From Planctomycetota bacterium (GTDB lineage: Bacteria; Planctomycetota; UBA1135; UBA2386): 64,000 nucleotides of DNA. How positions within the stretch are numbered: the stretch's first letter is position 1; the number at the start of each line of letters is the position of its first letter. The stretch lies in assembly GCA_051278165.1 (NCBI GenBank), contig JBNMNW010000001.1, positions 42,235-106,234 on the forward strand, written 5' to 3'. Under the pieces are notes generated by a model, which searched no databases, was not told the DNA's origin, and saw nothing but the letters and a program-made list of their open reading frames with translations. The position numbers and the translations under genes are program-made. Positions 21,980 to 59,559 of the stretch are shown here, in pieces.

Positions 21980-23191
21980 ATGTTCGTGCCCCAGCGCCAC
22001 AAAACGATCTCAGTCCCGGTCGGTCCCGTCCAGGTTGGCAGTTGCCACCAGGTCGTCGTGCAATCGATGACCAACACCGACACCGCCAATGCCGAGAGCA
22101 CCGCGACGCAAGTCGCCGAGCTCTACAATGCCGGCAGCGAATTGGTGCGCATCACCGTCAACACGCAGGAGGCGGCGGCGGCCGTCCCCGAGATCCAACG
22201 TCGCCTGCACGACCTCGGCCTCGACGTGCCGATGATCGGGGACTTCCACTACAACGGGCACGTCCTGCTGAAGAAGTATCCGGAGTGCGCCCAGATCCTC
22301 GCCAAGTACCGGATCAACCCGGGCAACGTCGGCAAGGGCGCCAACCACGACAAGAACTTCGCGACGATGGTGCAGTGCGCCGTCGATCACAACAAGCCAG
22401 TGCGCATCGGCGTCAACGCTGGCTCGCTCGATCAGGATTTGCTCAATGACCTGATGGAGACCAACGCGAAGTCTTCGATCCCGCAAGATGCGCAGACGGT
22501 CTTCCTCGAGGCAATGGTGCAGAGCGCAGTTCGTTCCGCGCATGCCGCCGAAGAACTGGGACTGAAGCGCGAGCAGATCATCCTCAGCTGCAAGATCAGC
22601 AAGGTGCAAGAACTGGTGCGCGTCTACCGGGCGCTCGCCGATCGCACCGACCACGCGCTGCACCTCGGCCTGACCGAAGCGGGCATGGGCAGCAAGGGCA
22701 TTGTCAGCTCGACAGCCGGACTTGCGATCCTGCTGCAAGAAGGCATCGGCGACACCATCCGCGTGTCGTTGACCCCCGAGCCGGGCGGCGCGCGCACGCA
22801 AGAGGTGCGCATCGCGCAGCAGATCCTACAGTCGATGGACATCCGTCCGTTCTTACCGCAGGTCACCGCATGTCCTGGCTGTGGCCGCACGACCTCGAGT
22901 TACTTCCAAGTGCTCAGCCAAGAAGTCGAGCAGTTCTTGGTCGCGCGCATGCCGGTGTGGAAGAAGGAAAAGCCGCAAGCGGCCAACCTGCAAGTTGCGG
23001 TGATGGGCTGTGTCGTCAATGGCCCCGGTGAGAGCAAGGCCGCCAACATTGGCATCTCGCTACCCGGCACCGGCGAAGCCCCGCGGGCGCCGCTCTACGT
23101 CGACGGCGAGCAAGTAGGCACACTCGAAGGGCCGACGCTGACGCAGGACTTCCTCGATCGCATCGAAGAATACGTCGCGCACATGGAGTAG
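21980..23191 (+). CDS. ispG: 4-hydroxy-3-methylbut-2-en-1-yl diphosphate synthase (flavodoxin), MEP pathway
   Basis: [59 protein letters not shown] and [10 protein letters not shown] all match IspG/GcpE. Confidence 0.95.
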
Positions 23192-43548: not shown

Positions 43549-43604
43549 TGACGAAATATCGTTAATTTACGAGGAGTCGTGACTGACTCACGAAATATCG
43601 TAAG
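43549..43604. promoter_or_regulatory. two copies of imperfect palindrome ACGAAATATCGT (candidate enhancer/UAS for the sigma-54 activator)
   Basis: Copies lie at 43551-43562 and 43590-43601, spaced 39 bp. Each is ACGA-N4-TCGT (10 of 12 positions self-complementary). Their centres sit ~75 and ~115 bp upstream of the -24 element. Confidence 0.5.
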
Positions 43605-45207
43605 TTCAGACGTCATGGACAGCCTTGAAGGTGAGTTCGCGGAACTGATGCTGGAGATGCCCCAGCAGCGGACCTGCTCGGGCCTGCTGGACCTGATCGT
43701 GCGGCGGTTGAACCAGCGTGCCGGCACGGCGCTGGCGCGGATCTGGCTGGCGCTTCCGGGCGACATCTGCGACGCGTGCCACCTGGCTTCGGAGTGTCGT
43801 GATCGCACGACCTGCATGCATCTGGAAGCGAGCGCCGGCAAATCGCTCGTGGATGCCTCGGCGGACTGGTCCGCAACCGATGGCGCGTTTCGCCGGTTCC
43901 CAATGGGCGTGCGCAAGGTCGGCAAGATCGCTGCAACCCGGCAACCGGTCGAGGTGCCCGACATCACCGGCAACGAGAGTTGGATTGCTCGCCCCGAATG
44001 GGTCAAGGCCGAGGGCATCCGTGGCTTTGGTGGCCAGCCACTGCTCTTCAAAGGCGAAGTGCTCGGAGTCTTAGCGGTCTTTACGCGGGAGCCGCTCAAA
44101 CCGCACGCGCTGGTCGGCCTGCGCATGATCGCGGACCACGCCGCCATCGCGATCGCGAACGCCCGCGCCTTCGAGCAGATCGATGAACTGCGCGCCAAGC
44201 TCGAACTCGAGAACACCTACCTGCGCGAAGAAGTGCGCGAGGCCTCGATGTTTGGCGAGATCGTTGGCCAGAGCCCTGCCTTGCGGCACGTCATCGAGCA
44301 GATGGATCTCGTCGCAACAACATCCGCAACGGTCTTGATCACCGGCGAGTCCGGCACTGGCAAGGAACTAGTGGCCCGCGAGATCCATGATCGCAGCGGC
44401 CGTCGCGATTGCCCGATGATCAAGGTCAACTGCGCATCCGTGCCGCGCGAACTTTACGAGAGCGAGTTCTTCGGACATGTGAAAGGTGCGTTCACGGGAG
44501 CGGTGCAAGATCGCGTCGGACGCTTCGCCGCAGCCGACGGCGGCACCTTGTTCCTCGATGAAGTCGGCGAGATTCCTCTCGAACTGCAAAGCAAGCTGCT
44601 GCGTGTGCTGCAAGAAGGTGAGTACGAACGAGTCGGCGACGAGCGTACGCAGCAGGTCGACGTGCGCATCGTGGCCGCCACCAATCGCAACCTAAAGGCC
44701 GAGGTCGAAGCAGGACGATTTCGACAGGATCTCTACTACCGCTTAAACGTGTTCCCGCTGCTCGCTGTCCCCCTGCGCGATCGTCGTGATGACATTCCGC
44801 TGCTAGCCGAGCACTTCCTGAAGAAGGCCGCTCGCGGCATGAATCGGCCGATTCCAAAGCTGACCAAGGCGGGCGTTGCGCAGCTCCAGAGCTACCAATG
44901 GCCTGGCAATGTGCGTGAACTACAGAACGTGATCGAACGCTCGGTCATCACGTCAACGGGCCGCTCGCTGCGATTTGATTTGCCAACAGAACCCGAAGCC
45001 GCGCGCGGTGAGGATGGCGCCAAGGAAGTGCGCGTCATCGCCACGGATGCCGAGATGAAGCGTCGAGAGCGCAGCAATCTCACGGCCGCGCTTGAGGAGA
45101 CTCGCTGGAAGATATCAGGTGCCGGTGGCGCAGCAGAACTACTCGGCATTCGCGCCACAACGTTGACGTCACGCCTCAAGAAACTTGGCATCGAGCGCGG
45201 GCTCTAG
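43579..45207 (+). CDS. sigma-54-dependent transcriptional activator (GAF sensor, AAA+ domain, Fis-type HTH)
   Basis: The GAF-like N-terminal domain contains [19 protein letters not shown]+ motifs are [29 protein letters not shown] and RVIAATN. The C-terminal HTH is [21 protein letters not shown]. The start is either GTG 43579 or ATG 43615. Confidence 0.9.
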
Positions 45208-45307: not shown

Positions 45308-46237
45308 TCACATCGAGCCGGGCTGGACACGCAGGGAGCGCCGCAGCGCGTCGGTTACGATCAGGTGCGGCACCGTTAGCGACGCCAGGCCGATGAACAC
45401 CATCTGCAGCCAGCGTCGCAGCGGCACCTGATCAGTCGGCAGCATGACCCAAACCAGAGCGCCAGCAGCGATGGTCGCGACCGTCATCGGCAGCGCGGAC
45501 CAACCGAAGCCGCCGAGCGCGCGCAGCCAAGGTCCAGGGCGCAGTTCTTGCGCGACGACCAGGATGTGACGCGGCGCATGCCAGATGCAAAAGTAGAGAC
45601 CGAACGACAGCAGCGGCGGCAGCAGCAGCCCAGCGACGGCCACTGCGAGGACTTCGACGAGCTCGCCCGCAGCACGGCGGGGCCGAAACACGAAGGCAGC
45701 CAGCATCAAGCTTGTCGCCAACAGCAGCGCTGGCCTTGCCTGACGCAGGATGTCATTCCACGCGGCGGCGTCACCATTGGTCAGCAGCGAGAACAGCTCG
45801 CCGACCGCTTCCGGATGAGCAATCGCTGGCATCAGAATCGGCAAGCTGCCGTGCACGAGCACTCCGAGTGGATCCTTCGCATCGCCGGTTCCAAAGTGAT
45901 GAACGGACATCACCAAAAAGACCACGAGGCTCACCGTCGGCAGCAGCCACCAGACAATGGCTACGGCGAGTGCCAGGGCCACATAGCCAAGCAGAAACGT
46001 CGGCAGCCAGATTGGCCCCAGCCGGCCGCGCAGAATCGGCGCCATGCGATGATGATCGACCGCGCCGTGCGGCACGCCGGTCAGCAACACTCCCACCCCG
46101 AGCAAGATCGCCTGCACGTGCGGTTCGAGATGGCTCGCCGGACCGGCGAAGAGCACGGCGCAAACGGTAGCTAGCAACGCGATGCGTCGATGGCGGCGGC
46201 CAGCCGCACGTTCGTCGATCGTAGCCACGGCGCTCAT
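45308..46237 (-). CDS. blh: Brp/Blh-family beta-carotene 15,15'-dioxygenase (retinal synthesis)
   Basis: Polytopic membrane protein with the conserved His sites GVPHGAVDHH, SVHHFGTGD and WHAPRH. The preferred start ATG 46237-46235 overlaps the crtY stop (ATGA). Confidence 0.85.
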   Translation of the reverse strand: MSAVATIDERAAGRRHRRIALLATVCAVLFAGPASHLEPHVQAILLGVGVLLTGVPHGAVDHHRMAPILRGRLGPIWLPTFLLGYVALALAVAIVWWLLPTVSLVVFLVMSVHHFGTGDAKDPLGVLVHGSLPILMPAIAHPEAVGELFSLLTNGDAAAWNDILRQARPALLLATSLMLAAFVFRPRRAAGELVEVLAVAVAGLLLPPLLSFGLYFCIWHAPRHILVVAQELRPGPWLRALGGFGWSALPMTVATIAAGALVWVMLPTDQVPLRRWLQMVFIGLASLTVPHLIVTDALRRSLRVQPGSM

Positions 46238-47415
46238 GCGGACCGCACCCACAGTCGCAGCGAGCGCATTGATTCACGGAGCATCGGCAGCTTGGGTAGC
46301 GCCATCGCGACCGCTGCCGCATCGCGCAGCGTGCTGCGGTCGGAGAGAAATCGCACCAGCACGTCCGGAGCCACCTTCTCAAACATGTGCAAGAACAGCT
46401 GCGGCATGCGCGCCGGATCGCGGCGCATGAACGCTAGGAACATACGATCCATCGCCAGCGCGCGGGCACTGCGTGGTGCTTGGCCGGTTGGCTTGCGGCC
46501 AGCGGCAAGATCCTCAGCAACCGCACGCGACCAGCGCTGCACCGCTTCGAACGAATACCCAGTGCTCGGCTTGACCAATCCTCCCGCAGTGCCGATTGGA
46601 ATCACGCGGGCATCTTCGGCTGGCACCAGCCGGCGCCGTGTGCTCATCGGCACGCGGCCGCGCTCCGTCGCGAGGATCTCGTAGGAGGGGCCACCGAGCA
46701 CCTCGCTGAAGTGCCCATGCAGCATCGCCTCGTGCTCAGCATCGGCAACCGCCGCCGGAGCAAACGCTGTCGCCTCGACCAGCGCTTCGTTCTGCGAGAA
46801 AGGCAACACGTACACGAAGCGCACGTCCGCGTCGCTCGCGTGGAAGCGCATCAGCGTCACAGTCTGAGCATCAAAGACCGGCTCTTCACTGCGTACGTGC
46901 CAGCCGAGGAAGTCCTGCACCCAATCGACCTCGTCACGATCGACGGTCGCGGTGGGCGGTTGCAATCGACTATCGAACACCATCGACGCCGACAGCACTT
47001 CGCCGCTCGCGACCTCGACCTCGGCCGCCTCGCCGACGTCACGCACCTCGCGCACGGCGCAACCGAGCCGCAACTCAGCGTTGGACGCCGCTGCGAGCCG
47101 CCGCAGCGCTTCGTCATAGAGCCGCCCCGAAGGGATGCAACGATACGGCTGACTGTCGCAACTCTGCACGTGCTCGCGGCCGTCAGCGGCAACCCGCCAG
47201 CGGGTCCACGAGTTTTCGATACAGTTGGTGAACGGGTGCGTTGGCTGGGCCCAACTGCACCAAAAGCGGTCGTGGCGATACTCGGTGCGCGCTTCGAGGA
47301 CCAACAGCCGACGCTCGCCGATGCCCTGCTCAAGCAAATGGCACGCTAGGCTTAGACCGGCAAGACCACCACCAACGATGATGATGTCCGCAGCTAGCTT
47401 GCGATCGGCACTCAT
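46234..47415 (-). CDS. crtY: lycopene beta-cyclase (CrtY type)
   Basis: N-terminal FAD fold DIIIVGGGLAGLSLA, ~390 aa, with the PIGTAGGLVKPSTGYSF motif. It sits between crtB and blh, and its start overlaps the crtB stop (ATGA at 47412-47415). Confidence 0.85.
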   Translation of the reverse strand: MSADRKLAADIIIVGGGLAGLSLACHLLEQGIGERRLLVLEARTEYRHDRFWCSWAQPTHPFTNCIENSWTRWRVAADGREHVQSCDSQPYRCIPSGRLYDEALRRLAAASNAELRLGCAVREVRDVGEAAEVEVASGEVLSASMVFDSRLQPPTATVDRDEVDWVQDFLGWHVRSEEPVFDAQTVTLMRFHASDADVRFVYVLPFSQNEALVEATAFAPAAVADAEHEAMLHGHFSEVLGGPSYEILATERGRVPMSTRRRLVPAEDARVIPIGTAGGLVKPSTGYSFEAVQRWSRAVAEDLAAGRKPTGQAPRSARALAMDRMFLAFMRRDPARMPQLFLHMFEKVAPDVLVRFLSDRSTLRDAAAVAMALPKLPMLRESMRSLRLWVRSA

Positions 47416-48380
47416 GCTGGATCGATTTCGGGCAAGCCGTGCAGATCCGCATGCAACCTAGGATCGTGAGAAGCCGTCGGCCCGCTCGGCCAGAAACGCG
47501 GATAGATCACGAGAGCAGAGAGTGCGCGCGCCGTGTGCCAAAGCTTGCCGCCAGCGTTCACATGACAGCGCCGCTGCCAGTAGTCCGGACCGCGGCGTCG
47601 AATGACGGCGCCAATGCCTTCATAGATGCGGCTCGCGGCCAGGATCGCCGCGCGGGCGCGCCATGGCAGGTAGCGCATGCCGTGGTCGGCGCTGCGGTAA
47701 TAGAGCGCCGCGAGATCGAGCACATCTGCCACCGCCGACCGCGCGTCCGAGCGCACGCCAACGCTGTCGTGACGCAGAGACTCGGACGAAATGTGCTTAG
47801 CCATAGGCACGTAGATGCGGCCTCGGCCAGCGTCTTCGAGCACGTCACGTGAGATGTTGGTCAGCTGCATCGCGATGCCTAGATCGATTGCGAACGCCCG
47901 CCCCCGGCGGTCGCTGCAGCCAAGCACGTCGCACATCATCAGCCCGACTGTCGACGCGACCCCAAAGGCATAGCGCACCAGCTGCCGACGATCACGAAAC
48001 CGCACGGCTCCGGTGTCACGCTGCAGCGTGTCGAGCAGCACGTCGACCACAACCGGGTCGATGCGGCAGCGCTGCATGAGTGCGGCGAAGGCGCTGACCA
48101 CGTCGACTGCGACCGACGGGCCTGATTCGTCCCCACCCGCCAGACGGGCGCGCAGCGCGACGATCTCGGCCCGTCCCTCGACCGGCGGTAGTTCGTCGAC
48201 GAGATCGTCGGCGTGGCGACAGAACGCATAGAGTGTTGCCGCGTCTTGAGCATGCTGCTTCGTCAGGAACGCACTCGCCCAGTGGAAGCTGCGACCGTGA
48301 TGGGCCAGAACAGCCGCAGAGTCGCTAGCGGCCATTGGCTGACCTCTAGGCTGACTCGCTGCCGGAACCGGGCTCGCCAT
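47412..48380 (-). CDS. crtB: phytoene synthase
   Basis: GRSFHWASAFL, YAFCRHADDLVDE (first Asp-rich motif) and NISRDVLEDAGRGRIY (second). The preferred start ATG 48380-48378 shares 1 nt with the crtI stop. The tracked ORF 5' extension overlaps crtI. Confidence 0.9.
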   Translation of the reverse strand: MASPVPAASQPRGQPMAASDSAAVLAHHGRSFHWASAFLTKQHAQDAATLYAFCRHADDLVDELPPVEGRAEIVALRARLAGGDESGPSVAVDVVSAFAALMQRCRIDPVVVDVLLDTLQRDTGAVRFRDRRQLVRYAFGVASTVGLMMCDVLGCSDRRGRAFAIDLGIAMQLTNISRDVLEDAGRGRIYVPMAKHISSESLRHDSVGVRSDARSAVADVLDLAALYYRSADHGMRYLPWRARAAILAASRIYEGIGAVIRRRGPDYWQRRCHVNAGGKLWHTARALSALVIYPRFWPSGPTASHDPRLHADLHGLPEIDPA

Positions 48381-49990
48381 CAGCGCACCACGCGGCCCGC
48401 ATTGCCAGCCTGAAACACATCTGGCGACGGCACAACCCGGTCGAGCACCTTCGCCGACGAAAGCACCCCTGGCACACCCGCGCCGGGATGCGTGCCTGCT
48501 CCGACCAGGAACAAGTTCTCGAGCTCTTCCGAGCGGTTGTGGAAGCGGAACCATGCTGACTGCTGCAGCAGCGGTTGGATCGAGAAGCCGGCACCGTTGA
48601 CCGACAGGTAGCGATCTCCGAAATCCTGCGGCGTCATGTGGAAGCGCACCGCCAGCGATTCGCGCAGTCCTGGCATCATGGTGCGCTCGAGCGCCTCCAG
48701 GATGCGATCGCCATATGACTCGGCCTGTTCCGACCAGTCGATGCCTGATTTGAGGTTGGGCACTGGCGACAGCACGTAGAACGTGTCACATCCCGGCGGC
48801 GCCATGCCTGGATCGGTCGCGGTCGGCCGATGCAGATACAGGCTGAAGTCGTCAGACAGCACCTTCTTCTCGAAGATATCGTGCAGCAGCCCGCGGTAGC
48901 GCGGCCCCATCGAGATCGTGTGGTGCGCGATGTCCGAGTACTGCCGACGGGTGCCAAAGTGCAGCACGAACAATCCCATCGAGTAGCGCAGGCGGTCGAG
49001 CTTGCGCTTGGTCCAGCGACGCTTCTTGCCCGGCACCATGCTGCGGTAGAGGTGGGGCGCATCCGCATTGCTGACCACGATATCGGCGGGCAGTTCACGG
49101 CCGCCTGCCAGCAGCACGCCGGTTGCCCGACCTCCGTCAGTCGTGATCTGCTCGACGGTCTCGCCGAGCCGCACTTCGATGCCCTGGCGCTCCATCAAGG
49201 ACCCGAGAGCCTTCACCAACGCGCCGGTGCCGCCCATCGGAAAGTGCACGCCCCACTGTCGTTCGAGGAAGTGGATTAGCGAGTAGATCGACGTCGTATC
49301 AAATGGGTTGCCGCCAACCAGCAGCGGCTGGATACTGAACGCTTGCCGCAGCTGCGGGTTCTTCAGGTGGCGTTTGACGAGGCCGTAGACGGACCGGTCG
49401 CTACGCAACCGCAACAGCTGTGGCAGCAGCTTGAGCATGGTCGAGAACCGGTCAAATGGACGGTCTGCCAGGCCCGTGAAGCCAACATCGAAGATCCGCT
49501 TACTCGTTTCGAGCAGCTTCAAGTAGCCCGCCTGATCGCGTGGCTCGAAGCGAGCAATCTCCGCTAGCGTCTGTTCAATGGTGCCGCCGTAATCAAACGT
49601 TTTGCCGTCGTCAAAGCGAAACCTATACCAAGGCTCTACCGGTCGCAGATCCACGTGATCTGCCATGTTCTCGGAGAACAGTGAGAACAATTCTTCTAAT
49701 AGAAAAGGTGCGGTGATGACGGTTGGGCCACCGTCAAAAACAAAGCCATCGCGCTCGAACACCTGCGCGCGCCCACCGAGCATCGGGCAACGATCGACGA
49801 GTGTGACGCGATAGCCCCGGGCCCGCAAACGCAGAGCCGCAGCCATGCCCCCGAAGCCGGCGCCGATCACCACCGCGTGAGCTCCCTGGCCGGATGCGGC
49901 GAAGGCCGTGCCGCGTCCTATCGTTTGCGCGCCATCGATTGGGACGCCATCCTTCGGAACCCCGCTCGGCCGGACTTGCGAGGTTGTCAT
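48380..49990 (-). CDS. crtI: phytoene desaturase
   Basis: N-terminal dinucleotide fold AVVIGAGFGGMAAALRL. About 536 aa. C-terminal LVGAGTHPGAGVPGVLSSAK is typical of CrtI. Confidence 0.92.
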   Translation of the reverse strand: MTTSQVRPSGVPKDGVPIDGAQTIGRGTAFAASGQGAHAVVIGAGFGGMAAALRLRARGYRVTLVDRCPMLGGRAQVFERDGFVFDGGPTVITAPFLLEELFSLFSENMADHVDLRPVEPWYRFRFDDGKTFDYGGTIEQTLAEIARFEPRDQAGYLKLLETSKRIFDVGFTGLADRPFDRFSTMLKLLPQLLRLRSDRSVYGLVKRHLKNPQLRQAFSIQPLLVGGNPFDTTSIYSLIHFLERQWGVHFPMGGTGALVKALGSLMERQGIEVRLGETVEQITTDGGRATGVLLAGGRELPADIVVSNADAPHLYRSMVPGKKRRWTKRKLDRLRYSMGLFVLHFGTRRQYSDIAHHTISMGPRYRGLLHDIFEKKVLSDDFSLYLHRPTATDPGMAPPGCDTFYVLSPVPNLKSGIDWSEQAESYGDRILEALERTMMPGLRESLAVRFHMTPQDFGDRYLSVNGAGFSIQPLLQQSAWFRFHNRSEELENLFLVGAGTHPGAGVPGVLSSAKVLDRVVPSPDVFQAGNAGRVVR

Positions 49991-50994
49991 TCTGCCACCT
50001 CAAAAGAAGTGTCGGAGTCATCACCCGTACGGGTGCAGGCGGGCAAACTGCGCTCGAAGCGCAGCACTTCGCCATGAAGCAGCCCGACGCAGTCGGCGGG
50101 CAGGACAGACCAGCAGCTACGCGCCGCCGTCAGCAGTTCGTCAATGCGCGCTATGGTGCGCTCGATCGCTCCGCTTTCGCGGATGGCCCGAACCCATGGC
50201 ATGACATCGGCGGTGCGCCGCTCGCGAGCCGAGAGCAACTGAAGTAGATGCTCTTTGCTCGATTGTGTGGTGTGCTCAAGAAAGTCGATCGCGGGCCACG
50301 TGAGTTTGCCTTCGCGCAGATCAGCTCCCGCTTCACCGCGTTGCTTCCGGTCGAGTAAATCGGCGACGTCATCGGCTAGCTGGTAGGCGGTGCCGAGCAA
50401 CAGCCCACCTTCACGCATCGCCGCAACGTCGCGTTCTTTGAGACCGGCCAGGATCGCCGCGCACTCGAGTGGCAGCGCCAGCAGCGGCCCCGTCTTGTCG
50501 CTAGCGATGCGCTCGTAGCGATCTCGTTCAAGACTCAGATCTTCGCGGTGCAGAATCTCATCTGACTGACCGCACGCTATCCGACTGGTCGCGACAGCGA
50601 ACACCTGCACGAGCCGGATGCGCCGCTCGGCTGGCGCCGGCAGCTTGGCTAAACATGCAAACGCACACGCCAAAAGATGGTCACCAAGGTTGATGGCGAC
50701 AGGCTCGCCGAAGCGAACCCACACCGTTTCGCGACCACGTCGCAGGACATCTCTATCCTGAATATCGTCGTGTACTAACGACGCGTTATGCAGCAATTCA
50801 CAAGCCACGCCGAGGTCGCGTGCGCCTGGCGTATCAACGCCAAGGCGCGACGCGACCGTCTGCGCGAGGCCGCCCCGCAATTGCTTGCCTGGGCGGGCTA
50901 AGTGGTATCGAGCAGCGGCACCAAGGATGCCTCCGAGGCGGGCGGCTTGCTGAACGCTCTCGTGAAGGATTTCCTGCTGATCGACTGCTGACAT
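49987..50994 (-). CDS. crtE: polyprenyl (geranylgeranyl) diphosphate synthase
   Basis: LLHNASLVHDDIQDRD (first DDxxD) and YQLADDVADL (second). GAGGTG lies 7 nt upstream of the ATG. The stop overlaps the crtI start (ATGA at 49987-49990). Confidence 0.88.
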   Translation of the reverse strand: MSAVDQQEILHESVQQAARLGGILGAAARYHLARPGKQLRGGLAQTVASRLGVDTPGARDLGVACELLHNASLVHDDIQDRDVLRRGRETVWVRFGEPVAINLGDHLLACAFACLAKLPAPAERRIRLVQVFAVATSRIACGQSDEILHREDLSLERDRYERIASDKTGPLLALPLECAAILAGLKERDVAAMREGGLLLGTAYQLADDVADLLDRKQRGEAGADLREGKLTWPAIDFLEHTTQSSKEHLLQLLSARERRTADVMPWVRAIRESGAIERTIARIDELLTAARSCWSVLPADCVGLLHGEVLRFERSLPACTRTGDDSDTSFEVAE

Positions 50995-51044: not shown

Positions 51045-51833
51045 TTACGCGGCCTTGCTCGAAGCTTCCGATCCGTCGGAACCAACCACGTAGCCGTCGG
51101 CATCAGACTTCTCGCGAGCGATGAAGTAGATGTAGATGCCGAGACCGACCTTCGCAGTAATGTCGGCGATCGTGTAGCCAACTTGCAGCGTCACTTGGCC
51201 AGCAGAGTCGCTGAGGCCCAGCACCGTCGCCAAGTAAGCAATCGGGTAGAAGCTCCAGGTGATCAGGATCAGGCCGCGTGCCTTCTTGATGATCGGTTGC
51301 ACCGAGCTCGGCTGGCTGTTGACAGCGCTACCGAACGTCGTGAACAGGGTGAACATGATGAACAGGAACGGGATCATCGATAGCACCCACCAGAGCCATT
51401 TACCGCCGGCTTCGGTTGCAACTTCGCCGGGGTAGCCGAGCACGATCATCAACGCCGCCGCGATCGACAGACGCATCGACATGCTGCGTGAGGCTACCTT
51501 GGCTAGGCCCAATACAGCGACCAGTTCGATCACCAAAAGCGGCACGGTCAACAGCCAGTCGGCATAGCGATAGGCATCGTTAAACAGCTCGCCAGACGCA
51601 ACATAGTTGCCATCCACGAGCATGTAGGAAGCGTCAAAGCTGTGGGCGATTCGGAAGTAGTGGTAGCACGCGATCGTTGGCACGAGGGCCGAGATCAGTA
51701 GCGCTGGGCGATACTTCGGTGCGACTTGCGAGCGGGAGAAGAAGAAGAACAGCGCGCCAGCAAACATCGCCGCAATGCAGAGCGACATGACGTTGTAGAC
51801 GAGGCTGAACTCGGTAGGAGTTAAGGTTGGCAT
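51045..51833 (-). CDS. microbial (type 1) rhodopsin, xanthorhodopsin/Gloeobacter-rhodopsin clade, predicted outward proton pump
   Basis: The preferred start is ATG 51833-51831 (MPTLTPTEFSLVYNV; 262 aa, 7 TM). Helix C is RYADWLLTVPLLVIE (D92/T96/E103 = DTE). H58 lies in CYHYFRI. Helix G is YTIADITAK (D224, Schiff-base K228). It aligns without gaps, at a constant offset of 29, to Gloeobacter rhodopsin recalled from memory. Confidence 0.93.
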   Translation of the reverse strand: MPTLTPTEFSLVYNVMSLCIAAMFAGALFFFFSRSQVAPKYRPALLISALVPTIACYHYFRIAHSFDASYMLVDGNYVASGELFNDAYRYADWLLTVPLLVIELVAVLGLAKVASRSMSMRLSIAAALMIVLGYPGEVATEAGGKWLWWVLSMIPFLFIMFTLFTTFGSAVNSQPSSVQPIIKKARGLILITWSFYPIAYLATVLGLSDSAGQVTLQVGYTIADITAKVGLGIYIYFIAREKSDADGYVVGSDGSEASSKAA

Positions 51834-52156
51834 AGCAGCGTTTTGAAATGGTTGTTGTGGGGTCAGAATCGTTATGCGCCTAAGGGTTCGCAGATCGATG
51901 GTCATCCGGATGCACGCGAAACCTTGTTTTCCGAGTCGCTGTGAGAGACCTCGCAAGCTGCGCATCCGCCCGAATATCGAGATGAAATTCGCGCCGCGGA
52001 CAATCGCAGACGGGTTAGGTCAATGACGAGGACAGGGCGCCCAGCACGGCGTGGCGTCGTCACGCCAATTTGATCAACGCCTTCATTCCCAGCGGTAGAC
52101 CGCCTTGCCGCATGGTTAGCGGAGAGCGCGATCCCGACGGATCCAGCAGATCGTGA

Positions 52157-52594
52157 ATGCGAAGGTTCGGATCTCGACGCCAACGCGTAGTGCGCAACCG
52201 CTACCGTTTGCGCGTGCGATACGTCCAAACGCTCAGTGCCTATCTCCTTGCTGTGCCGTTGATCGGCTCCGCCATCAACCACGTCTTCCAACTGGTCGAG
52301 CCACCCATGGATGACGGTTCGCGCGGCGCGCAGATGTGGCAAATCATCCGCGACGGTGGGCTGATGACCTGGCTCGCAACCGGGCACGCGCTGCTCGGCA
52401 TGCTGCTACTTCTGCCGCGCACGCGCTTCGCGGCGGGCATGCTGCAACTCCCGGTCACGCTGGGCATCGTAGCCTTCAACCTGACGATGTTTCCGGCAGG
52501 AGTCGCGCTGGCGCTGGGGATGCTCGCCGTCAATCTGGCCGTCGTTCTGCGGCCCGCGGACCTTCACCGTCTACTGGCGACAGCGAGGGCCTAA
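52157..52594 (+). CDS. small membrane protein (DoxX-like topology)
   Basis: 145 aa with strong G/C third-position bias. After an Arg-rich N-terminus come four hydrophobic segments. Family assignment is tentative, and the start may be an internal GTG. Confidence 0.55.
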   Translation: MRRFGSRRQRVVRNRYRLRVRYVQTLSAYLLAVPLIGSAINHVFQLVEPPMDDGSRGAQMWQIIRDGGLMTWLATGHALLGMLLLLPRTRFAAGMLQLPVTLGIVAFNLTMFPAGVALALGMLAVNLAVVLRPADLHRLLATARA

Positions 52595-52679: not shown

Positions 52680-53054
52680 CTACACGTAGGGAACCGCGCA
52701 GATCACGATGCACATGATCAGCATGAGCGTGGCCGGGACATACTTAGAAGCCGGATCACCGACTTTCATGTGCATAGCGAACGCACCTGCCATCAGCACG
52801 GCAACGACCGCAGCGGCGGGCACGACGACCGGTTCGTAGGCGAAGCCGACCAGCAGCAGAACTCCGGCCAGGATCTTTAGGCCGCCGACGATGTAGAACA
52901 CCGAGCTTGGCAACCCATAGGTTGCGAACTCTTCTTTAAGGTTCTTGGCGTCGCCGCCGCGGAAGGCAGTCGCGCTGCGAGGGCGAACGAGCCAAACGTT
53001 GAGGAGACCTAGGCCGACGATGGCCTGAAGAATGGAAGCGAGTCCGTCGAGCAT
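52680..53054 (-). CDS. DoxX-like family membrane protein
   Basis: 124 aa with 4 TM. EEFATYGLPSSVFYIVGGLKILAGVLLLVG...MAGAFAMHMKVGD fits the DoxX-like (DoxX_2) pattern. Confidence 0.65.
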   Translation of the reverse strand: MLDGLASILQAIVGLGLLNVWLVRPRSATAFRGGDAKNLKEEFATYGLPSSVFYIVGGLKILAGVLLLVGFAYEPVVVPAAAVVAVLMAGAFAMHMKVGDPASKYVPATLMLIMCIVICAVPYV

Positions 53055-53087: not shown

Positions 53088-53465
53088 ATGCAGCGAGGAA
53101 ATCAAGAGCACGTTCCCATGCAGATTACTTTCGAAGTCGCCCGCGCCATCTCGATCCTCGCGTTCCTGTTCTACGGAGTGACTTGCCTAGTCACGACGCG
53201 CATGGTTGCCGAGTTCCAGCGCTACGGCCTAGGGCGATTCCGCCGGTTGGTCGGCGCTCTCCAGTTCATCGGCGCCGTTGGGATGCTCGCGGGCTATGCG
53301 TATCAATCGTTGCTGATTGTCTCCGCCGCAGGCCTGACACTCCTGATGCTGCTGGGGATCGCCACGCGCATCCGGATCGGCGACACCCTGATTCAGACGC
53401 TCCCGGCGATGGTCTTCTTCGTCGTTAACGGCTTCATCCTAGTCGTCGCGCTGCAGGCAATGTGA
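53088..53465 (+). CDS. DoxX-like family membrane protein
   Basis: 125 aa with 4 TM. AEFQRYGLGRFRRLVGALQFIGAVGMLAG...LLGIATRIRIGD follows the same pattern as the 52680-53054 product. The start may be M11. Confidence 0.65.
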   Translation: MQRGNQEHVPMQITFEVARAISILAFLFYGVTCLVTTRMVAEFQRYGLGRFRRLVGALQFIGAVGMLAGYAYQSLLIVSAAGLTLLMLLGIATRIRIGDTLIQTLPAMVFFVVNGFILVVALQAM

Positions 53466-57904: not shown

Positions 57905-58456
57905 ATGACCGATCCCCGCAAAGCCCTCTCCGAAACGTTCACCGCGGATCCGTTGGTCGGCGTCATCATGGGTTCGCGCAGTGACTGGGCGACCATGCAG
58001 CACTGTGCCGACACGCTCGAAGAGATGGGCGTTCCTCACGAAGTGCGCATCGTCTCCGCGCATCGCACGCCCGACTGGCTGATGGAATACGCGGGCACTG
58101 CCGAAGCGCGCGGCCTGCAGGTATTGATCGCGGCCGCCGGCGGCGCCGCACACTTGCCCGGCATGACCGCGAGCAAGACCGTGTTGCCAGTGCTCGGCGT
58201 GCCGATAGACGCAACCTGCATGAAGGGCATGGACGCGTTGCTGTCGATTGTGCAGATGCCAGGCGGCGTGCCAGTGGGAACCCTCGCGGTCGGCAAACCG
58301 GGCGCCATCAACGCCGCGCTACTCGCAACGGCGATGCTCGGCGAGGCACATCCCGAACTACGCGAAGCCTTGCGCCAACGTCGTCAAGCGATGACCGACA
58401 AGGTGCTCGCTGACCAGGACCCGCGCGAACCCGCGCCAGCCGCTAAGAACGCATGA
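57905..58456 (+). CDS. purE: 5-(carboxyamino)imidazole ribonucleotide mutase
   Basis: VGVIMGSRSDW, RIVSAHRTPD and AAGGAAHLPGM...PVLGVP. Confidence 0.95.
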   Translation: MTDPRKALSETFTADPLVGVIMGSRSDWATMQHCADTLEEMGVPHEVRIVSAHRTPDWLMEYAGTAEARGLQVLIAAAGGAAHLPGMTASKTVLPVLGVPIDATCMKGMDALLSIVQMPGGVPVGTLAVGKPGAINAALLATAMLGEAHPELREALRQRRQAMTDKVLADQDPREPAPAAKNA

Positions 58457-59559
58457 TCACCGCGGTGCTCGGAGGAGGCCAACTGGCCCGCATGCTAGCG
58501 CTTGCTGGCGCCTCACTCGGGCTGCGCACGCGCTGCCTCGATCCATTCCCGGACGCTGTCGCCGGTCACGTCAGCGAACTGATCGTTGCCGACTTCGACG
58601 ATGTCGCAGCGCTCGGTCGCTTGGCCCAAGGCGCCGACGTGTGCACGTTCGAGTTTGAGAACGTGCCGGTAGCGGCAACCGAGTGGCTAACCGAACACGC
58701 AACGGTGCATCCGCATCCGCGGGCCCTAGGCATTGGCCAAGACCGTGTGCAAGAGAAGCAGTTGTTCCAGCGACTCGGCATCGGCGTCGCCAGATTCGAA
58801 GCCGCGAACACACTCGAAGAGTTGCGTCAGGCAGTCGCCACGATTGGCACACCGTGCATCATCAAGACGCGCCGCCTCGGCTACGACGGCCGCGGTCAAG
58901 TGCGACTGCAGCCCGGCGACGATCTCGCGCAAGCGATCGACGCGGCCCACGCTTCGCTAACTGATAACTACCATGGCGGTTTGGTGGTCGAAGGCATGGT
59001 GCCGTTCGACCGCGAACTCTCGGTGCTTGCCGTGCGCGGTCGCACCGGCGAGATCGCCTGCTATCCGCTGGTCGAGAACGAGCACGAGGGCGGCATCTTG
59101 CGCCGCAGCCGCGCGCCGGCACCGAACCTATCTTCCGAAGTGCAGGCAGAGGCAGCTGAGATTGCCGCGACGCTGCTCAACGAACTCGACTACGTCGGCG
59201 TTCTCGCCGTCGAACTGTTCGATGTTGGCGGCACGCTGCTCGCCAACGAGATGGCGCCACGGGTGCACAATTCGGGCCACTGGACGATCGAAGGTTCGGT
59301 CTGTTCGCAGTTCGAAAACCACCTGCGTGCCGTTCACGGCTTGCCGCTCGGCAGCACCGAGATGGCGCAAGGCGGCGTCGCCACGATGATCAACTTGATC
59401 AGCGAGATGCCGGAGCGACAGCACTTGTTCTCGCTGCCGGGCGTGCATGTGCACGACTACGGCAAGTCACCACGAGCAAACCGCAAGCTCGGTCATGCAA
59501 CGGTTGTCGGTCAGGACCGCGCCGAAGTCGACGCGATGGCCGGCCGCATCTTGGGCTGA
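58453..59559 (+). CDS. purK: 5-(carboxyamino)imidazole ribonucleotide synthase
   Basis: GGGQLARM at the N-terminus, an ATP-grasp body (KTRRLGYDGRGQ), and APRVHNSGHWT. The start overlaps the purE stop (ATGA). Confidence 0.92.
   Translation: MITAVLGGGQLARMLALAGASLGLRTRCLDPFPDAVAGHVSELIVADFDDVAALGRLAQGADVCTFEFENVPVAATEWLTEHATVHPHPRALGIGQDRVQEKQLFQRLGIGVARFEAANTLEELRQAVATIGTPCIIKTRRLGYDGRGQVRLQPGDDLAQAIDAAHASLTDNYHGGLVVEGMVPFDRELSVLAVRGRTGEIACYPLVENEHEGGILRRSRAPAPNLSSEVQAEAAEIAATLLNELDYVGVLAVELFDVGGTLLANEMAPRVHNSGHWTIEGSVCSQFENHLRAVHGLPLGSTEMAQGGVATMINLISEMPERQHLFSLPGVHVHDYGKSPRANRKLGHATVVGQDRAEVDAMAGRILG

Follow-up and report, generated by a model that had tools for sequence, protein, structure and literature searches.

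Antenna-bearing and non-fenestrated rhodopsins

Xanthorhodopsin (XR) of Salinibacter, Gloeobacter rhodopsin (GR), Kin4B8 and psXR each carry a bound carotenoid as an antenna (PMC3646047; 10.1101/2022.08.24.505090; PMC12779958). In such antenna-bearing relatives of the opsin described here, a glycine of helix E leaves a fenestration through which the ring of the carotenoid touches the ring of retinal; XR T160 is a residue of the binding site (PMC3646047). PMC3646047 cites what follows when this Gly is exchanged for Trp in XR and GR, including the loss of binding in GR G178W; carotenoid binding is likewise lost in Kin4B8 G153F (10.1101/2022.08.24.505090), and xanthophylls are not bound by the non-fenestrated GPR (10.1101/2022.08.24.505090). 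That bulk at this position precludes an antenna is also a general statement of PMC12779958, and W138 of bacteriorhodopsin is cited in the literature as a bulky residue that prevents fenestration.

Both states of the fenestration position occur in nature. Environmental XRs have either a bulky Trp or Phe, with antenna use blocked, or Gly, and on average 55% are of the Gly type (Chazan et al., preprint 10.1101/2022.08.24.505090, later published in Nature 2023). The XR 'subgroup II', which comprises Octadecabacter, marine flavobacterial and dinoflagellate rhodopsins, has Trp at XR-156 in most of its members and poorly conserved helix-F slot residues, and its opsin genes are part of a conserved retinal-synthesis gene cluster from which crtO is absent (Vollmers et al. 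2013, PMC3646047). Opsins that fall in the XR branch and carry a DTE motif are also on record from freshwater Planctomycetes (10.1101/2022.08.01.502354). The opsin gene analysed here is from a Planctomycetota metagenome-assembled genome (MAG), within a stretch of 64,000 nucleotides that is referred to below, at its full length, as the window.

The opsin gene and its retinal operon

The 262-aa form of the opsin is 100% identical to NCBI MFT4839591.1, "MAG: bacteriorhodopsin [Planctomycetota bacterium]", for which the NCBI start corresponds to 51833. The frame is open further upstream, where starts at the in-frame ATGs 51905 and 51965 would give 286 aa and 306 aa. Near-identical database opsins appear as the 286-aa form, from the 51905 start, in the calls of some pipelines, and the identical sequence as the 262-aa form at NCBI. 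An exact-sequence look-up with the 286-aa form gave no match, the recorded form being that of 262 aa. Since most homologs are of 259–270 aa and an identical 262-aa record exists at NCBI, the 51833 start is reasonable. Translation from its Met gives each of the functional residues that the initial annotation had named, H58, D92, T96, L100, E103, D224 and K228, the last two within YTIADITAK, and codon 149 reads directly as TGG. Coordinates are collected in Table 1.

Table 1. Positions in the window of the opsin gene, its functional codons and the adjoining retinal-synthesis genes
Feature	Position	Strand	Basis or remark
Opsin gene, XR-family DTE rhodopsin, non-fenestrated (Trp) type	51045..51833	-	262 aa; Pfam PF01036, PDB matches, AF2/Foldseek
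Codon 58, His	51660..51662	-	aligned with XR H62 (partner of the Asp counterion)
Helix C motif RYADWLLTVPLLVIE	51525..51560	-	aligned with XR D96/T100/E107
D92	51560-51558	-	DTE motif, helix C
T96	51548-51546	-	DTE motif, helix C
L100	51536-51534	-	Leu at the PR-105 tuning site, helix C
E103	51527-51525	-	DTE motif, helix C
Codon 149, TGG (Trp), fenestration position	51387..51389	-	alignments (XR G156 / GR G178 / Kin4B8 G153)
Codon 153, Met	51375..51377	-	alignments; opposite XR T160 (carotenoid-ring contact)
Helix G, D224 (51164-51162) and Schiff-base Lys K228 (51152-51150)	51150..51164	-	XR D236/K240
crtE-like polyprenyl (GGPP) synthase	49987..50994	-	PF00348, 198 bits; 50 nt downstream of the opsin gene
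crtI-like phytoene desaturase	48380..49990	-	PF01593, 120 bits; start overlaps crtE stop by 4 nt
crtB-like phytoene synthase	47412..48380	-	PF00494, 184 bits; likely start ATG 48380
crtY-like lycopene cyclase	46234..47415	-	PF05834, 208 bits; start overlaps crtB stop by 4 nt
blh-like beta-carotene 15,15'-dioxygenase (makes retinal)	45308..46252	-	PF15461, 188 bits; last gene of the operon

Genes for five families of retinal-synthesis enzymes follow directly downstream of the opsin gene on the same strand, in the order crtE-crtI-crtB-crtY-blh, and no gap or overlap between neighbours exceeds 50 nt. The longest crtB ORF, 47412-48554 (-), overlaps crtI by 175 nt and its Pfam domain begins only at residue 84; the start at 48380 is likelier because it abuts the crtI stop and fits the Pfam domain boundary better, which hints at coupled translation throughout the operon. 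A scan for promoters and terminators around the operon revealed nothing above shuffle expectation. The order opsin-crtEIBY-blh recurs at other Trp-type loci (for example L005, L010, L024, L026, L028 and L051 among the genomic loci compared), in other Planctomycetota and in other phyla, the cultured Saltatorellus ferox Poly30 (L026) being one of the sources, and crtI homologs that are 48–78% identical lie beside opsins in related loci.

Just upstream of the opsin gene are two small genes for DoxX-like membrane proteins, back to back at 52680-53054 (-) and 53088-53465 (+), and between these and the opsin gene is an ORF of 161 aa, 51902-52387 (-), with no Pfam match. At the other end a gene for a sigma-54 enhancer-binding protein, 43579-45207 (+), with GAF, Sigma54_activat and HTH_8 domains, converges on the end of blh.

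Family, fold and predicted pumping

The opsin matches Pfam Bac_rhodopsin (PF01036) at 145 bits (E 3e-42; cutoff 24.6), and its best sequence match in the PDB (HMMER) is Salinibacter XR, 3DDL, at 257 bits and 2e-75. The other top matches are psXR (9WFA), Kin4B8 (7YTB, for which there is also 8I2Z), GR (6NWD), Thermus TR (5AZD) and the actinorhodopsin RlActR (9HFK). Matches within the XR clade score 198–257 bits, the next group no more than about 109 bits and proteorhodopsins about 90 bits; bacteriorhodopsin of Halobacterium salinarum, with a DTD motif and without the His partner, belongs to a distant family at 66 bits. Identity is 52% to XR and 48% to GR, with a range of 46–52% across XR, GR, Kin4B8, psXR and TR. 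The AlphaFold2 model, built on 50 homologs, has a pLDDT of 92.8 and a pTM of 0.88, and consists of seven long helices and a B-C hairpin. Foldseek comparison of it with the same five structures gives TM values of 0.90–0.98 at an rmsd of 0.9–1.4 Å; the probability is 1.00 to many rhodopsins, and the relatives rank in the same order as they do by sequence.

These five relatives and the present opsin are alike in their DTE motif, His-Asp pair, tuning-site Leu and B-C beta-hairpin. In an alignment of 121 sequences, the opsin itself and its 120 closest database homologs at 54–98% identity, H58, D92, T96, L100, E103, D224 and K228 are invariant (121/121), K228 standing opposite XR K240 as the Schiff-base lysine. 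The closest relatives by sequence and by structure, the DTE motif and the His partner thus bear out the initial annotation in its assignment of the protein to the XR family as a DTE opsin of the proton-pump type.

The expected course of pumping is that of the family. Retinal, made on site by the co-transcribed crtE-crtI-crtB-crtY-blh, would form a Schiff base with K228; the proton acceptor would be D92, partnered by H58, E103 would re-protonate the Schiff base from the cytoplasm, and T96 would complete the DTE motif. Leu100 is at the place that we take to be that of L105 in GPR, going by the GPR helix-C sequence RYIDWLLTVPLLICE, and Leu at this PR-105 site leads to the prediction of green absorption.

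Some XR-related lineages in the set representing 50%-identity clusters do carry other motifs, DTQ, DTA and NDQ, and no characterised member of the immediate Trp+Met clade of the opsin was found in the literature. It is nevertheless very improbable that the opsin is a sensor, pumps inward or moves an ion other than the proton: its DTE motif, His58, D224 and K228 are intact and invariant, its gene has no transducer-like neighbour and shares an operon with the retinal-synthesis genes, as pump genes do at other loci, and its nearest characterised relatives are all outward proton pumps. Residues, alignment, fold, operon and the conservation of W149/M153 throughout the clade are direct observations of this analysis; pumping direction and ion, like the colour and the predicted lack of carotenoid binding, are here extrapolated from characterised relatives and from the published Gly-to-bulky mutants, and outward proton pumping is the reading retained in what follows.

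The fenestration position

In the HMMER alignment to PDB sequences, residues 3-247 of the opsin pair with GR (6nwd) 32-276 with zero gaps and at a constant offset of 29, as had been proposed at the outset, and no indel is brought in. W149 is accordingly opposite GR G178, at the fenestration position, a placement on which HMMER, MAFFT and structural superposition agree. Gly is opposite W149 in all five relatives (XR G156, GR G178, Kin4B8 G153, psXR and TR). Compared with the opsin, XR and Kin4B8 have three extra residues in the D-E loop, just upstream of helix E, which might raise the question of whether the Trp is misplaced there and the fenestration is in fact faced by a small residue. The likelihood of such an artefact is negligible and it was rejected: the GR and psXR alignments are without gaps over their whole length, the flanking W148 and the register of S152, P155 and F156 are common to XR, GR, Kin4B8 and the opsin, MAFFT and HMMER concur on the W149 column, and the structures superpose at 0.9–1.4 Å.

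The difference from these relatives is not confined to one residue. XR, GR, Kin4B8, psXR and TR pair the Gly with Thr or Ser, in contrast to W149 with M153 in the opsin. With respect to W149 the opsin resembles bacteriorhodopsin, where W138 is likewise part of a Trp-Trp pair in helix E, the second Trp of which walls the pocket for the retinal ring; the place of M153 is there taken by T142. W149, backed by M153, would fill the helix E/F fenestration as W138 does in bacteriorhodopsin, so that no canonical carotenoid antenna would dock and light would be harvested through retinal alone.

The rest of the carotenoid site has also diverged. On a list of XR site residues drawn partly from PMC3646047 and partly from Luecke et al. 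2008 (L148, F157, T160, N191, L194, L197, A198, G201, I205, Y207, M208 and M211), only L197, I205 and Y207 are kept, 3 of the 11 positions that could be mapped; the other 8 differ, among them T160M, N191K, L194G, A198I, G201S, M208L and M211V, and XR L148 falls in a gap. Opposite Kin4B8 A205, S208 and Y209 the opsin has L201, V204 and L205. The opsin therefore has neither the Gly at XR-156 nor the conserved set of ring-pocket and helix-F slot residues by which a fenestrated XR is recognised.

A carotenoid need not be held in the manner of XR: bacterioruberin sits between the protomers of archaerhodopsin-2. The present pump might similarly use a carotenoid non-canonically, on the helix E/F surface without insertion of the ring or between protomers, as a structural or photocycle cofactor or as a weak antenna. 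Beta-carotene is an intermediate of the operon's pathway, so carotenoids would be present in the cell, the three retained XR residues are in the helix-F slot, and carotenoids have been described as accelerating the rhodopsin photocycle in modes other than that of an antenna (preprint 10.1101/2024.11.08.622755). Against this are the changes at most slot and pocket positions, the fact that the GR and Kin4B8 Gly-to-Trp/Phe mutants lose binding itself altogether and not energy transfer only, and the failure of non-fenestrated GPR to bind xanthophylls; such a role is accordingly judged improbable. Much the best account is that the opsin, a member of the XR-like family and of its known non-fenestrated type, absorbs green light through retinal alone and uses it to pump protons outward, and on present evidence this is very probably correct.

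The initial annotation had called the protein antenna-incompetent and had pointed to the lack of a carotenoid ketolase in the operon as agreeing with this. The first claim stands to the extent that the Trp occupies the very position at which published Gly-to-bulky mutants lose binding, closure of the fenestration being deduced from sequence and from those mutants. As to the second, there is indeed no ketolase-like gene in the operon or in the other scanned ORFs: no crtZ-, crtW- or crtO-like gene was detected with Pfam in about 50 ORFs across the window, ORFs of less than 150 aa outside the operon region having been scanned in part. This absence has little weight for the antenna question, because fenestrated XRs and PRs, Kin4B8 and psXR being examples, take up hydroxylated xanthophylls, zeaxanthin and lutein for instance (10.1101/2022.08.24.505090; PMC12779958), with no need of a ketolase, and because genes for an antenna carotenoid may lie outside the opsin operon.

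Occurrence of the Trp state

The Trp had been presented as an exception within an antenna-bearing clade, a view that finds no support, the XR family being a known mix and the clade of the opsin almost uniformly of the Trp+Met153 type. Among the 120 closest homologs, position 149 is Trp in 109, Phe in 4 and Gly in 7 (Trp in 110 of 121 when the opsin itself is counted). At the species level, 52 of 80 genomic loci have Trp or Phe and 28 have Gly, the split by positions 149 and 153 being 48 W+M, 4 F+M, 22 G+S and 6 G+T. With 109 of 120 closest homologs having it, and with its publication by Chazan et al. and Vollmers et al., the Trp is not an anomaly. The variant is common, already published and ordinary, and the opsin is one more member of an abundant class. 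It is of the same type as the non-fenestrated environmental XRs of Chazan et al. (about 45%) and differs from them in nothing of substance; its source is a Planctomycetota MAG.

The opsin is like subgroup II of Vollmers et al. in having W149, a cluster of retinal genes after the opsin gene and no ketolase-like Pfam match in the window. Its identities to XR and GR, 52% and 48%, are to be set against 44–47% to distant Trp-type representatives, some of which seem to come from marine eukaryote transcriptomes. By sequence, the group to which it belongs may be a separate Trp-type lineage that is closer to 'subgroup I'.

Positions 149 and 153 co-vary almost perfectly. In 162 DTE sequences, which include representatives of 50%-identity clusters, there are 123 W+M, 8 F+M, 19 G+T and 4 G+S pairs; the remainder are 4 F+C and 4 other combinations. 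In a bootstrapped neighbour-joining tree, built without columns 149 and 153, the opsin falls in a clade that is W+M throughout its 14 sampled sequences and has 69% support, and along the backbone between Trp-type and Gly-type lineages bootstrap values are below 20%. Because the pairing is strict and the Trp and Gly lineages are interleaved on that weakly supported backbone (<20%), W149/M153 and G149-T/S153 could be thought of as a two-residue switch that XR-family pumps have thrown again and again, from closed, with retinal only, to open, with an antenna, or back. Trp+Met would then be more than antenna loss and would itself have been selected, for instance for a shift in colour, for stability or for quicker turnover. 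This is rather unlikely. Were it true, a W149G/M153T double mutant might gain xanthophyll binding.

At the species level the closest opsin overall is that of another Planctomycetota MAG (L005, 75%), and the closest relatives are otherwise mostly from MAGs of Melainabacteria/Obscuribacterales, which are non-photosynthetic relatives of cyanobacteria, at 65–72% (L001-L004, L006, L007 and L009). The Melainabacteria/Obscuribacterales loci have the order opsin-crtI-crtB-crtY, with no crtE detected. The pattern suggests that the Trp-type opsin cassette has passed between phyla, and has done so in different versions. Loci L058-L080, mostly from Pirellula/Pirellulaceae, encode Gly+Ser XR opsins and have crtE-crtI-crtB about 3 kb downstream, with no crtY or blh match within the flank. 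Both types of fenestration position thus exist within Planctomycetota, with differing locus layouts.

The taxonomic labels of some database relatives are in conflict. The 90%-identity clusters of the opsin and of PurK (58453-59559) contain both Planctomycetota bacterium and Neolewinella sp. labels, and that of the opsin also has a Hyphomicrobiaceae bacterium label. The entries identical to the IspG (21980-23191), opsin and PurK of the window are all labelled Planctomycetota. The conflicting MAG labels suggest errors of binning or labelling.

Implications

Beyond correct annotation the finding has little significance, and the coupling of W/F149-M153 as against G149-T/S153 is a mildly interesting remainder. 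None of the solved XR-clade structures that were checked is of a Trp-type XR, which would make a member of the Trp clade a reasonable, if incremental, structural target. In surveys of phototrophy that divide light-energy capture into that with and that without carotenoid antennas, the opsin would be placed in the 'antenna-less' bin, and the appropriate annotation is that of a predicted XR-family proton pump of the non-fenestrated type, encoded in a Planctomycetota genome together with a retinal operon of its own.
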